DNA of 64,000 nucleotides. It comes from Escherichia coli. GTDB lineage: Bacteria > Pseudomonadota > Gammaproteobacteria > Enterobacterales > Enterobacteriaceae. Shown one piece after another: positions 59,517 to 64,000 of the stretch. The translations under genes were made by a program, and so were the position numbers. Numbering within the stretch: position 1 is the stretch's first letter; the number at the start of each line of letters is the position of its first letter. The notes beneath the pieces were generated by a model. It saw only the letters and a list, made by a program, of their open reading frames with translations. It ran no database searches and was not told the origin of the DNA. The stretch is from assembly GCF_003334765.1 (NCBI RefSeq), contig NZ_QOWT01000001.1, one strand, 5' to 3'.

Positions 59517-61163
59517 TTATTCAATCTCTTCACAGACATCCTGCGTTAAACGCCGCATAATATCTTTTCTTAACAAAAACTTTTGTATTTTACCTGAGGT
59601 AGTTCGCGGTAGTTTTTCGATTACCACGATATGTTCAGGATATTTATATTTTGCGACCCGTTTACGGCTAAAAAAAGCCACTACCTCTTCCAGCGATAAT
59701 GAATGATGCGGCGCTTTCAGCACGACATAAGCGCATGATCGTTCACCTAAACGTTCATCGGACATTGCAACCACACAGGCATCGTGAATTTTAGGATGCT
59801 GCAATAAAATATCTTCCACTTCACGGCTGCTAATATTTTCGCCGCCGCGGACAATAATATCTTTTTTGCGTCCGGTAATTTTTATATAGCCAGCCTCATC
59901 CATACGGCAGAGATCGCCGCTGTAATACCAGCCTTCTTCATCCAGGGCACGGGCGGTTAATTCAGGTTCATCAAAATACCCCATAAACACATTGGGGCCA
60001 CGCGAGGCTTCTTCACCTTCGCAACCTGGCGGTAAGGTCTTGCGTGCGTCATCGACCACTTTAATCTCTACACCTGCGGCAGCGTAACCATCGGTGTGCA
60101 TAAAGCGCGACAAAGGATCATCGAGATTCACCACCGCATGCGGCGAACTTTCTGTGGAACCATAAACACTTAATAATTTAATGCCGCGCTGCTGGCATTC
60201 ACGCGCCACTTTTTTGGGGATTGTGGTTCCGCCGCAAAGAAAGAAACGCAGCGCTGAAAGGTCCGCGGGTTGTTTCTCTAGTACATTCAAAAGATCATAG
60301 ACAAACGGCGTTGCGCCGAGCATACAGGTGCAACGCTGCTGCTCAAGCAGCGCGAGACACGCATCAGGAGTGAAAATATCTAACAACACGCTGCGAGCGC
60401 CAATTAAGAATGGTGCCGTTACGCCATGCAGAAAGCCCGTTGCGTGACCAAGTGGCGCAGGCATCATAAAGACATCCTGCCAGGTCAGATTCAGTCGCGC
60501 GCAATAAGCCCGCTCACTGGCGAGAATATTGTTATGCGTTAGCATCACGCCCTTTGGCAGACCCTCGGTTCCGGAGGTAAACAGCACCGCAGCTAATTCA
60601 TCGCCGTGGGTCGTTATCGCCGTGGTCAGTGAGGTATTGTCGGCGATAATCTGACTTAATGAGAGGGAAGAGGTGGCGGGAGCCAGTTTGTCCACGCCGA
60701 CAATTTGTTGTAGTTGTGGAAGCTGATTTTGCAGCGGCAGGATTAAATCTACCGGACGCGTTTGTTTAAACAACGTCGGTGCAAAGAACATTTTTGCCTG
60801 ACACTTATTGAGCACCCACACCAGTTCTGCTTCCCGCCAGGAAGGCAACAGCGGCACGGAAACTGCACCGATTTTCAGGCAGGCAAGATAGATAACGGTA
60901 AATTCACACCAGCCAGGCAGTTGAAATGCGATGCGATCGCCTGATTCAATACCCTTCGCTAACATCCAGTTTGCCAGACAGCTCGCGGCGTGATCGAGCG
61001 CGCTATAGGTGTACGATGCACCATGATTATCGACCACGGCAATTTTGTCTGGCATCGCACGAGCGGTCTGCTGCCAGTAATCGGCCAGCGAAGCATCGCC
61101 CCATAACCCTTGCTGACGATACGCCGCACGACGTTGTTCGTTAAACGTTAATGTCACTTTCAT
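59517..61163 (-). CDS. fadK: Short-chain acyl-CoA synthetase (anaerobic)
   Basis: 548 aa from MKVTLTFNEQRRAAYRQQG; AMP-binding motif FTSGTEGLPKGV. Confidence 0.92.
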   Translation of the reverse strand: MKVTLTFNEQRRAAYRQQGLWGDASLADYWQQTARAMPDKIAVVDNHGASYTYSALDHAASCLANWMLAKGIESGDRIAFQLPGWCEFTVIYLACLKIGAVSVPLLPSWREAELVWVLNKCQAKMFFAPTLFKQTRPVDLILPLQNQLPQLQQIVGVDKLAPATSSLSLSQIIADNTSLTTAITTHGDELAAVLFTSGTEGLPKGVMLTHNNILASERAYCARLNLTWQDVFMMPAPLGHATGFLHGVTAPFLIGARSVLLDIFTPDACLALLEQQRCTCMLGATPFVYDLLNVLEKQPADLSALRFFLCGGTTIPKKVARECQQRGIKLLSVYGSTESSPHAVVNLDDPLSRFMHTDGYAAAGVEIKVVDDARKTLPPGCEGEEASRGPNVFMGYFDEPELTARALDEEGWYYSGDLCRMDEAGYIKITGRKKDIIVRGGENISSREVEDILLQHPKIHDACVVAMSDERLGERSCAYVVLKAPHHSLSLEEVVAFFSRKRVAKYKYPEHIVVIEKLPRTTSGKIQKFLLRKDIMRRLTQDVCEEIE

Positions 61164-61219
61164 GTTGGACTCTCGAAACAGAACATCAGGCCCGAGATGC
61201 GGGCCTGTGGGATGCATGA

Positions 61220-61513
61220 TTAGCCGTAGCGAAAATCAATACCGAAGGTGCCTGCGGGATATTGCCACTGTTCGAGAATAGTGTTACCGCACAGCACCCG
61301 ACAGGTGCCGCACTCCAGACAACCGGCGGAATCAAAATGAATGTTTCCTGCGTCATCCTGCTTATAAAGTCCGGCAGGGCAGGCTTTCATTAATTTATGG
61401 AATTCATTGATATCGGGATTTTCCGCCAGAATGATATGCGGGTGGCCCTCATCAACATGGAATTTATTGACGCCTAATTTGATGTCGACGTTAACCGTAG
61501 CGTTCTGGCTCAT
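61220..61513 (-). CDS. ydiT: Ferredoxin-like protein, FixX homologue
   Basis: 97 aa with Cys cluster CPAGLY...CLECGTCRVLC. Confidence 0.9.
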   Translation of the reverse strand: MSQNATVNVDIKLGVNKFHVDEGHPHIILAENPDINEFHKLMKACPAGLYKQDDAGNIHFDSAGCLECGTCRVLCGNTILEQWQYPAGTFGIDFRYG

Positions 61514-62854: not shown

Positions 62855-63793
62855 TTAGCGGCTCAACTGGCTAATCAGGGCAGGGACGACTTTGTAGATA
62901 TCGCCCACCAGACCGTAGTCGGCATAGTTGAAGATTGGCGCATTTTTATCTTTATTGATGGCGACAATCACTTTTGCGCCGTTGCCGCCAACCATATGCT
63001 GGATCTGCCCGGAGATCCCCAGCGTCAGGTAGAGATCGGATTTCAGCAACACGCCGGAGACACCGATATAACGTTCACGCTCCATCCAGTTCTCGCCTTC
63101 GGCAATTGGACGTGAACAGCCGACTTCAGCATTCAGCACCGCCGCCAGTTCGTGGACCATTTTTAGGTCATCCTGCGCCGCCAGTCCACGACCGACGCCA
63201 ACCACACGTTTTGCTTTGCTCAGGTCCACGCTGCTTGCGGCTTTCGCACGGCGTTCGCGACAGAGAATTTCATGACGCGGAGCAACATAAGGTACCGTTT
63301 CTGTCGGGCACTGATGAGAGGTATCACTGGTGCACGGTTCCTGAACACCGGGTGCAAGGGTAATGATCGCCAGCGGGCTGTTGATCTTTTCCTGAGCGAA
63401 CGCTAACCCGCCATACATCCGGTGTTCGGCGCAAATGTGACCATCGACAATATCCACCGCCGTGGCATCGTTCACCAGCGCCGCATTCAGTTGCACACTT
63501 AACCGTGCTGCCAGCGCTTTACCACGTTTCGTCGCGGCCAACAGCAACATAGCGGGGTGTTTATCTTTCAGCAGGGCAGCAATGCTTTCGGCGTAATTTT
63601 CAGTGCGTTGCAGCGCGTCGTTTTGCGCAAGAACATAAAGACATTTTGGACCATAAGGCATAACTGCCTGCGCCTGGTCGGTATTTTGTACAATGGCATA
63701 CACCTGTTGGCCCCATTGCTGAGCGCCGCCAAACAGTTCAGCATAACGTTCAGGATTATCGCTAAAGACCCAGACGCTGTTTAATTGACTCAT
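62855..63793 (-). CDS. ydiR: Electron transfer flavoprotein alpha subunit, FixB homologue
   Basis: 312 aa with ETF-alpha FAD-binding C-terminal domain. Confidence 0.92.
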   Translation of the reverse strand: MSQLNSVWVFSDNPERYAELFGGAQQWGQQVYAIVQNTDQAQAVMPYGPKCLYVLAQNDALQRTENYAESIAALLKDKHPAMLLLAATKRGKALAARLSVQLNAALVNDATAVDIVDGHICAEHRMYGGLAFAQEKINSPLAIITLAPGVQEPCTSDTSHQCPTETVPYVAPRHEILCRERRAKAASSVDLSKAKRVVGVGRGLAAQDDLKMVHELAAVLNAEVGCSRPIAEGENWMERERYIGVSGVLLKSDLYLTLGISGQIQHMVGGNGAKVIVAINKDKNAPIFNYADYGLVGDIYKVVPALISQLSR

Positions 63794-63812
63794 CGTTTCT
63801 TCTCCGTAGGCT

Positions 63813-64000
63813 TCAGTTCAGGGCTTTCTTCAGATGTTCCGCCAGCTCGGCAATGGCCTCCGGCGAATCGTTATCGATAATGATGTGCTTACGTTCTGTT
63901 TGCGGCGGTACGCGAATGCCGACCAGTTCAGCAAGTGGCGCGCTCTGGCTCCAGTCAATATCACTTGCCTGCCACTGATTTACCGGTTTTTTACCCGCGC
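63813..64000 (-). CDS. ydiQ: Electron transfer flavoprotein beta subunit, FixA homologue (C-terminal part only; 5' end beyond window)
   Basis: Open frame from the window end to TGA (complement of 63813-63815), ending ...LKKALN; 20 nt upstream of ydiR. Confidence 0.75.
   Translation of the reverse strand, partial: AGKKPVNQWQASDIDWSQSAPLAELVGIRVPPQTERKHIIIDNDSPEAIAELAEHLKKALN

Follow-up and report, generated by a model that had tools for sequence, protein, structure and literature searches.

The ydiQRST-fadK operon of Escherichia coli as a probable Cai/Fix-like, quinone-linked electron-transfer system

With which enzyme does a FixABCX-like electron-transfer module exchange electrons when its genes stand beside an acyl-coenzyme A (acyl-CoA) synthetase gene, in which direction do the electrons flow, and on behalf of which substrate? 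These questions are raised by the ydiQRST-fadK genes of Escherichia coli, found at one end of a stretch of 64,000 nucleotides (nt) from contig NZ_QOWT01000001.1 (RefSeq assembly GCF_003334765.1), the whole of which is called the window in the following. We consider it probable that the gene products belong to a linear, non-bifurcating chain of the Cai/Fix type, which would link the quinone pool via YdiST and YdiQR to YdiO and would work together with FadK and YdiF. The window contains the following genes of this system, which include those for the two subunits of an electron-transfer flavoprotein (ETF) and the split counterpart of a flavin adenine dinucleotide (FAD)-dependent ETF:quinone oxidoreductase (ETF-QO):

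59517-61163, minus strand: fadK (ydiD), adenosine monophosphate (AMP)-forming short/medium-chain acyl-CoA ligase, 548 amino acids with the RefSeq start
61220-61513, minus strand: ydiT, FixX-type ferredoxin-like protein, 97 amino acids with five cysteines
61510-62799, minus strand: ydiS, FixC-type FAD-dependent ETF-QO subunit, 429 amino acids
62855-63793, minus strand: ydiR, ETF alpha (large) subunit, 312 amino acids
63813-64000, minus strand: 3' end of ydiQ, ETF beta (small) subunit, last 61 codons and stop, cut by the end of the window

In a comparison with the complete E. coli genomes (n = 5426), positions 59400-64000 of the window proved to be 100% identical over 4601 nt to E. coli K-12 MG1655, and the region was found at a coverage of at least 80% in 5370 of the 5426 genomes. 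The stretch corresponds to the ydiQRST-fadK operon of E. coli K-12, of which it covers the distal four-fifths, and its genes are already known. The same applies to the idea of an electron route for acyl-CoA oxidation or reduction with an undefined substrate, which had been offered in a preliminary description of the window: it is reportedly the published hypothesis of Campbell and Cronan (said to go back to Campbell 2003 and Gulevich 2016), so that both the genes and the hypothesis are already known from the literature. The gene identities given in that description and the orientation that these genes share with the acyl-CoA synthetase hold, whereas the ydiQRST set, taken there to be present as a whole, is complete in the window for only three of its four genes. 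The translated piece at 63813-64000 is the C-terminus of YdiQ, and the complete ydiQ gene lies at 13414-14178 of the annotated record L001. Apart from the remainder of ydiQ, the promoter region and the divergent gene ydiP for an AraC-type regulator are also located outside the window, as are the acyl-CoA dehydrogenase gene ydiO, about 1.3 kb past the end of ydiQ, and the CoA-transferase gene ydiF beside it. An organization as operon is supported by the tight spacing of the genes (ydiQ-ydiR, 19 nt; ydiR-ydiS, 55 nt; ydiS-ydiT, overlap of 4 nt; ydiT-fadK, 56 nt), and the transcription unit is given as ydiQRST-fadK in a database-derived regulon table (PMC9962212). The longest open reading frame of fadK, extending to 61217, would code for 566 amino acids; this start was rejected, and the one giving 548 amino acids is preferred because ACG stands in place of the upstream ATG in three other Escherichia loci (L004-L006) and because the FadK family model NF004758 aligns to residues 19-565 of the longer frame.

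The assignment of the proteins to families is mostly straightforward, and the matches lie far above chance level. FadK scored 1086.8 bits with the equivalog model NF004758 (cutoff 736), YdiS 976.6 bits with NF007450 (cutoff 466), YdiR 689.1 bits with NF008884 (cutoff 528), and the full YdiQ protein 499.8 bits with NF008998 (cutoff 338), while YdiS also passed the FixC model NF007542 (639.2 bits, cutoff 610). YdiT stayed below the cutoff of the FixX model (143.9 versus 166 bits), yet it is 62% identical to E. coli FixX. YdiQ and YdiR, encoded by adjacent genes and both above their family cutoffs, are thus the beta and alpha subunits of an ETF heterodimer, and the order ydiQ-R-S-T is that of A-B-C-X in modules of the FixABCX/EtfABCX type. 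Among solved structures, YdiS is closest to the EtfC/FixC subunit of Thermotoga maritima (7koe_C, E-value 5.6e-70), followed by porcine ETF-QO (2gmh), the sole solved relative of YdiT is T. maritima EtfX (7koe_D), and for YdiQ the best ones come from bifurcating complexes, of which they form the small subunits (CarD, 6fah_B; 5ol2_B; LctB, 7qh2_B). Paralogs of the entire set are encoded in the carnitine locus of E. coli K-12, with sequence identities of 56% between YdiQ and FixA, 45% between YdiR and FixB, 61% between YdiS and FixC, 62% between YdiT and FixX, 48% between YdiO and CaiA, and 29% between FadK and CaiC. The next-best family of YdiO after CaiA is acryloyl-CoA reductase AcrC. The families, the A-B-C-X order, and the paralogy of 45-62% bear out the description of a FixABCX-like module beside an acyl-CoA synthetase, and the comparison with carnitine fixABCX that had been proposed along with it yields four paralogs in the same order.

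A view on the conservation of the locus was obtained from a comparative set collected by a search with YdiS (one genome per species, at least 80 loci) and classified by tblastn; among the loci listed, 32 belong to the ydi type, 41 to the cai/fix type, five to a third class, and two are unclassified. The order and orientation ydiN-ydiB-aroD-ydiF-ydiO-ydiP-ydiQRST-fadK are fixed in all 28 ydi-type loci with enough flanking sequence. This block of eleven genes spans eleven named genera (including Escherichia, Citrobacter, Kosakonia, Intestinirhabdus, Yersinia, Brenneria, Serratia, Dickeya, and Prodigiosinella) and one unclassified metagenome-assembled genome (MAG), and all of its reading frames are intact across them; the positions concerned are 15448-21283 of L001 and the loci L004-L058. 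The downstream ppsA flank is common to just 13 ydi-type loci, and the downstream neighbors in Yersinia are unrelated. In the ydi-type loci, YdiO and YdiF are 88-97% and 85-93% identical to the E. coli proteins, respectively, which indicates strong purifying selection, and the most conserved proteins of the block are YdiO, YdiF, and YdiB with median identities to E. coli of 95, 92, and 91%. The gradient of conservation is alike in both paralogous systems, with the dehydrogenase at the top (medians of 95% for YdiO and 94% for CaiA) and the ETF alpha subunit at the bottom (72% for YdiR and 70% for FixB). The ETF module therefore comes with a CaiA-like dehydrogenase/reductase, YdiO, whose gene is adjacent in 28 of 28 loci and lies outside the window. 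The loci of the third class (L032, L033, L034, L037, and L038) come from Phytobacter, Citrobacter youngae, Edaphovirga, and Budvicia, and each has a single co-oriented string made up of a ydiO-like gene (68-70%), a set of four ETF/FixCX-like genes, and a gene resembling fadK (64-66%); the ydi, cai/fix, and third-class systems are all present in Citrobacter youngae. That dehydrogenase, ETF chain, and ligase keep company in all three paralogous systems speaks more strongly than any other available evidence for their joint function. The proposed coupling of the operon to acyl-CoA redox chemistry gains from the paralogy with fixABCX, caiA, and caiC, from the linkage with ydiO and ydiF in 28 of 28 loci, and from the third-class string, although YdiO, which would use the electrons, is encoded outside the window and had gone unmentioned.

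Some of these loci carry additional genes. A PcaK-like transporter gene precedes the fadK-like gene in co-orientation in four of the five third-class loci (it is absent at L037), and the third-class cluster looked at in detail (L034, 7057-14630) has flanking genes for two enzymes, namely a family III CoA-transferase and an AcrC-like dehydrogenase, as well as for an HpaA-like regulator and a transporter of the major facilitator superfamily (MFS). In the canonical ydi block of an Enterobacterales MAG (L048, 11672-13057), a gene for a PcaK/MhpT-like aromatic acid:H+ symporter is located between ydiT and fadK. The genes directly downstream of fadK in Prodigiosinella (L029, 13639-19073) code for an HpaA-like regulator and an MFS transporter as well as for two dehydrogenases, of which one is AcrC-like and the other is a second ydiO-like enzyme (67%). 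These extra dehydrogenases come without ETF genes of their own, as though several dehydrogenases used one YdiQRST chain. An AcrC-like dehydrogenase gene is also present downstream in Serratia (L028) and Symbiopectobacterium (L026), at around 16000-17000.

In the chain which we consider probable, YdiQ and YdiR would form the FAD-containing ETF, and YdiS (with FAD) together with YdiT (with one [4Fe-4S] cluster) would represent a split ETF-QO, so that electrons could be passed along the membrane quinone pool, YdiS, YdiT, YdiQR, and the acyl-CoA dehydrogenase-type enzyme YdiO. FadK would provide the first acyl-CoA at the cost of adenosine triphosphate, and YdiF would then move the CoA moiety from the product to fresh substrate. 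Under anoxic conditions, electrons would somewhat more probably run from quinol via YdiS/T and YdiQR to YdiO and finally to an enoyl-CoA, as they do in the Cai/Fix system. The gene identities, the paralogy, the conserved linkage, and the deviating motifs are observations, whereas we infer YdiO as the partner, as well as the direction of the flow, the absence of bifurcation, and the division of labor between FadK and YdiF.

Does the module bifurcate electrons? The comparison with electron-bifurcating ETFs, which had also been suggested for this locus, came out negative on two sequence hallmarks, namely the "zipper" of the small subunit and the cysteines of the distal cluster. The zipper reads DGDTAQ in bifurcating ETFs (n = 216, with Thr at 100% in position 4 and Gly at 95%) and DDDSNQ in canonical ETFs (n = 449, with Asp at 98% in position 3 and Asn at 98% in position 5; PMC8958531). 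YdiQ conforms to neither of them, since pairwise alignments to CarD, Clostridioides difficile EtfB, and LctB place DLYAQQ at this position. The pattern D[LIVM]Y[AS]QQ recurs in 32 of 32 ydi-type loci, where it takes the form D[LIV]Y[AS]QQ, and in five of five third-class loci, and the fix-type zipper is DLY[AS]QQ in all 21 loci where the search pattern matched. With respect to the second hallmark, YdiT keeps the CLECGTC motif and the CP cysteine of T. maritima EtfX, and there is no cysteine in the region aligned to C29 and C33 of EtfX, the ligands of the distal [4Fe-4S] cluster; all 32 ydi-type YdiT orthologs contain five to six cysteines, and the fix-type FixX proteins four to five. YdiT therefore probably holds one [4Fe-4S] cluster, as far as its cysteine pattern tells, and the complex of Azotobacter vinelandii has been reported with two clusters (PMC5861303). 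In the large subunit, the flavin-adjacent arginine of known proteins (Rpa R165, Afe R146, and Tma R140) is aligned with the histidine of the EHRMYGGL motif of YdiR in three of five pairwise alignments and with the adjacent arginine, at the expense of a one-residue gap, in the other two; FixB, with the motif (K/T/S/R)HMVYGGL, has His rather than Arg at the aligned position.

As judged from these motifs, the enterobacterial Fix and Ydi modules are a distinct subtype, which agrees with the motif of neither bifurcating nor canonical ETFs and has probably one Fe-S cluster, and the Ydi module is probably not a bifurcating Fix complex. Without the DGDTAQ zipper and the cysteines of the distal cluster, it is better read as a linear chain from quinone to ETF to YdiO. 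If it were a classical bifurcating FixABCX complex, YdiQR would oxidize reduced nicotinamide adenine dinucleotide, with one electron going uphill to ferredoxin or flavodoxin while its partner passes downhill via YdiT and YdiS to quinone, and the low-potential electrons would feed YdiO or other enzymes. Such a function would be in accord with the gene order and homology to fixABCX, with the bifurcating small subunits being the best solved relatives of YdiQ, and with YdiS being nearest to EtfC of the bifurcating T. maritima complex; nevertheless, we regard it as very improbable in view of the missing threonine that is invariant in bifurcating ETFs, the histidine seen in three of five YdiR alignments and in FixB, and the lack of the distal-cluster cysteines in YdiT. 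The carnitine-linked FixAB and FixX proteins (L039-L083) share these deviations from bifurcating ETFs. Since the Fix and Ydi ETFs lack the hallmarks of bifurcation, they should not be modeled as ferredoxin-dependent bifurcating systems, and models of E. coli FixABCX as a classical bifurcating complex need checking.

As to the direction of electron flow in the linear chain, the reductive one under anoxia appears somewhat more likely than the oxidative one. The potentials given for crotonyl-CoA (-10 mV), menaquinone (-70 mV), and ubiquinone (+90 mV; PMC5861303) make the quinol-driven reduction mildly favorable and a menaquinone-linked oxidation unfavorable; in addition, the nearest families of YdiO are CaiA and AcrC, and FixAB is needed for carnitine reduction (PMC9329746). 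The oxidative direction, in which C6-C8 acids would undergo anaerobic beta-oxidation, is nonetheless a credible alternative. In this published reading of the operon, which we take to be possible, if not very probable, FadK activates short- and medium-chain acids, YdiO oxidizes the acyl-CoA, YdiQR and YdiST pass the electrons to quinone and further to nitrate or another acceptor, and FadIJ finish the cycle. Its wiring is identical to that of the reductive chain, so that all of the linkage evidence holds for it as well. It also has the activity of FadK on its side, which is highest in vitro with C6 and C8 fatty acids (PMC9329746, summarizing Morgan-Kiss and Cronan 2004), as well as the growth of a fadD mutant on short- and medium-chain acids under anaerobic conditions, which is lost in a fadD fadK double mutant (PMC9329746). 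However, the oxidation of acyl-CoA (about -10 mV) by menaquinone (about -70 mV) would be uphill (PMC5861303), the nearest characterized families of YdiO are reductases, and the block includes an AraC-type regulator of its own, along with conserved boxes, instead of being under FadR control. No control of fadK by either FadR or CRP is known, no anaerobic induction of the gene is seen in transcriptomes, and growth on fatty acids is normal in a single fadK mutant (PMC9329746); the label "anaerobic", which the preliminary description had attached to the route, thus rests on contested literature (PMC9329746).

The nearest relatives of FadK are also aryl and alicyclic acid ligases rather than fatty-acyl ligases. 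Its best solved relatives are a salicylate-AMP ligase (266 bits) and dihydroxybenzoate-AMP ligases (226-244 bits), and lower scores were obtained with the fatty-acyl ligases FadD13 (197 bits) and the long-chain acyl-CoA synthetase of Thermus thermophilus (162 bits). The best NCBIfam family other than its own is cyclohexanecarboxylate-CoA ligase, with 416.7 bits, which is under the cutoff of that family. All sequences obtained in a large protein search with FadK were near-identical ones from E. coli, and some of their records bear the name "cyclohexanecarboxylate-CoA ligase".

These relationships lead to a further and more tentative view of the substrate, which we consider unlikely on present evidence: the eleven-gene block may represent a Cai/Fix-like kit of "enoate respiration" for a ring carboxylate, such as shikimate, quinate, a derived cyclohexene-carboxylate, or an aromatic acid. 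In this case, YdiN, which has been assigned to the AAHS family of transporters (PMC10588857), would import the acid, YdiB and AroD would interconvert quinate, dehydroquinate, dehydroshikimate, and shikimate, FadK would prime the pathway with CoA, YdiF would recycle the CoA, and YdiO would reduce a ring enoyl-CoA with quinol electrons arriving via YdiST and YdiQR. There is a precedent in the enoate reduction of shikimate, which supports respiratory growth of Eggerthella lenta and Sutterella wadsworthensis via unrelated reductases (bioRxiv 10.1101/2022.12.26.521950). A ring carboxylate is suggested by the nearest relatives of FadK together with the constant company of ydiN, ydiB, and aroD, the block being invariant in 28 of 28 loci even though both flanks change, and by the conservation of YdiB (median of 91%), which is as strong as that of YdiF and YdiO. 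The lead is also drawn from the PcaK-like gene that separates ydiT from fadK in L048 as well as in four of five third-class clusters, and from the HpaA-like regulators that flank both the L034 cluster and the extra dehydrogenase genes of L029. On the other hand, aroD codes for the housekeeping dehydroquinase, so that the synteny may be merely historical. The measured activity of FadK with C6-C8 fatty acids (PMC9329746) weighs against the lead as well, although this objection is tempered by the bulk of these acids, which is similar to that of six-membered-ring carboxylates.

Putative signals of transcription were found on both sides of fadK, of which the two structured elements are:

59455-59492, minus strand: likely intrinsic terminator of fadK, consisting of a hairpin CCCCGGCG...CGCCGGGG (59492-59468) followed by AUUUAUUUUAUUU (U-run)
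61187-61207, minus strand: GC-rich stem-loop CAGGCCCGCATCTCGGGCCTG in the 56-nt spacer between ydiT and fadK

The hairpin behind fadK has a fold of -20.1 kcal/mol (z-score of -2.6, with two of 200 shuffles as stable) and is shared tail-to-tail with the convergent ppsA gene. It was passed over in a pattern scan for terminators, which allowed loops of up to 8 nt; the probable reason is that in the simplest drawing of the stem about 9 nt remain in the loop. The stem-loop in the ydiT-fadK spacer is possibly a partial terminator or an mRNA-stabilizing hairpin. Corresponding spacers of other genera (30-300 nt; L004-L042) are unrelated in sequence, and 25 of 28 of them contain a local fold of -12 kcal/mol or lower, with 15 of the 28 outdoing all but at most one of 30 shuffles; some Citrobacter spacers contain elements resembling repetitive extragenic palindromes (REP) instead. 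The recurrence of such predicted structures suggests that the ETF part and fadK may differ in expression or mRNA stability.

In the spacer between ydiP and ydiQ, TGCAAGATTGT is present on the minus strand as an exact direct repeat of two copies at a distance of 73 nt (14294-14304 and 14367-14377 of L001, equivalent to about 64693-64776 and thus past the end of the window), with a related AACAAGATTAT 21 nt upstream of the promoter-distal copy; no exact copy of TGCAAGATTGT was found elsewhere in the 64-kb window. A box TGCAAGAT[TA][GA]T is present in the same orientation, and usually twice, in the ydiP-ydiQ spacer of nearly all 32 ydi-type loci, which holds although the length of this spacer varies several-fold. 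The boxes are probably the operator of the AraC-type regulator YdiP. A scan of the locus for FNR boxes gave 17 matches versus 14.3 expected, which is chance level and neutral with regard to anaerobic control. Rfam returned nothing for positions 59300-64000 at an E-value of 1 or lower, and a repeat search gave just short two-copy matches at chance level. In the spacer between aroD and ydiF (18314-18340 of L001, outside the window), an 11-bp GC-rich hairpin follows directly after the aroD stop codon; its T-rich tail is on the opposite strand only, and no U-run is found downstream on the coding strand. With the tail on that strand, transcription of aroD may continue into ydiF-ydiO.

Finally, the gene set might be cryptic or decaying, kept by synteny without a current role in E. 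coli. In line with such a view, fadK of E. coli strain 26561, a bovine-mastitis isolate, is interrupted by an IS1 element that leaves two pseudogene fragments (L084, 618-3040), and three further records from human isolates list an IS1 element under the match, so that some natural strains can dispense with fadK; a sigma-70-like promoter was not detected in the spacer between ydiP and ydiQ, and no phenotype of a single mutant has been reported (PMC9329746). The near-complete presence of the region in complete E. coli genomes, the intact frames across all genera with the block, the purifying selection on YdiO and YdiF, and the conserved putative regulator boxes in the promoter region all argue against decay, and we deem it highly unlikely.

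Several points nevertheless weigh against the linear Cai/Fix-like chain as proposed here. A role of YdiQR in anaerobic growth on fatty acids was itself proposed from the adjacency to fadK, and a review of 2022 states that "experimental evidence is lacking" (PMC9329746); no experiment directly showing electron transfer between YdiQRST and YdiO was found in the literature, and the importance of YdiQRST for catalysis has been called unclear (PMC10318755). In reverse beta-oxidation strains, deletion or overexpression of YdiO barely altered the output of butyrate (PMC13126070). The in vitro preference of FadK for C6 and C8 fatty acids has to be added, as has the fact that losing fadK has consequences only in fadD mutants, in accord with an oxidative fatty-acid pathway (PMC9329746). 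As compared with the carnitine system, tblastn gave no match to CaiB or CaiD in the canonical ydi-type loci, so a CaiD-type hydratase is missing from the block, and no similarity was found between YdiF, a family I CoA-transferase, and CaiB, which are not homologous. Because of the stem-loop between ydiT and fadK, the expression of fadK may be partly independent of that of the ETF genes. Moreover, absent motifs are no proof of non-bifurcation.

The finding rediscovers an operon of E. coli K-12 that already has a name, and with it the hypothesis attached to this operon, and as such is of little significance. The operon belongs to the part of the E. coli genome without proven function, however, and it has been used on uncertain grounds in the engineering of reverse beta-oxidation. 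The conserved block and the relatives of FadK point to ring carboxylates, besides fatty acids, as candidate substrates.

Among known systems, the proposed chain has most in common with the E. coli cai/fix genes, in which CaiC serves as ligase, CaiB as transferase, CaiA as reductase, and FixABCX as electron chain. Both contain the four ETF, ETF-QO, and ferredoxin genes in the same order with 45-62% identity, a CaiA-like enzyme (YdiO, 48%), an AMP-forming ligase (FadK, 29% to CaiC), and a CoA-transferase gene in the cluster, and they share the deviant DLYAQQ zipper, the apparent one-cluster ferredoxin, and the gradient of conservation across genera. They differ in the transferase, which belongs to family I in the case of YdiF and to family III in that of CaiB, so that their roles match by analogy only, and in the regulator, which is the AraC-type YdiP instead of CaiF. 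The Ydi system also lacks the CaiD hydratase, CaiE, and the CaiT antiporter, and its ligase gene ends the ETF operon, whereas that of the Cai system is part of the dehydrogenase operon. The caffeate respiration of Acetobacterium woodii resembles the proposed Ydi scheme in its roles of a priming ligase, a recycling CoA-transferase, an enoyl-CoA reductase of the acyl-CoA dehydrogenase type, and an ETF. The CoA-transferase is CarA and the ligase CarB; CarD is the best solved relative of YdiQ, and CarC is among the solved relatives of YdiO. In contrast, CarCDE is a soluble, bifurcating complex without FixC and FixX, in which CarE has an extra ferredoxin domain, whereas the Ydi system has the quinone-linked FixCX pair and no bifurcation motif.

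The FixABCX/EtfABCX complexes of A. vinelandii and T. maritima (7KOE) share the four-subunit architecture with YdiQRST, every subunit being homologous, but the latter is devoid of the zipper motif and the distal [4Fe-4S] ligands, shows no link to nitrogen fixation, and is encoded alongside an acyl-CoA dehydrogenase and CoA-activating enzymes. The canonical pair of ETF and ETF-ubiquinone oxidoreductase, as known from humans and Paracoccus, is comparable in that an ETF heterodimer takes electrons from acyl-CoA dehydrogenases to quinone via a FAD/Fe-S enzyme. In the Ydi system, however, this enzyme is split into YdiS and YdiT, the motif of the small subunit is not DDDSNQ, and YdiQ and YdiR are less similar to the canonical subunits than to those of the Fix and Car types. 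The third ETF/FixCX-like set of E. coli, ygcNOQR, is related to the Ydi proteins with identities of 42% (YgcN and YdiS), 41% (YgcO and YdiT), and 30% (YgcQ and YdiR), but is far more divergent and differs in gene order, and no ligase or acyl-CoA dehydrogenase gene was found beside it in the 18 kb examined.

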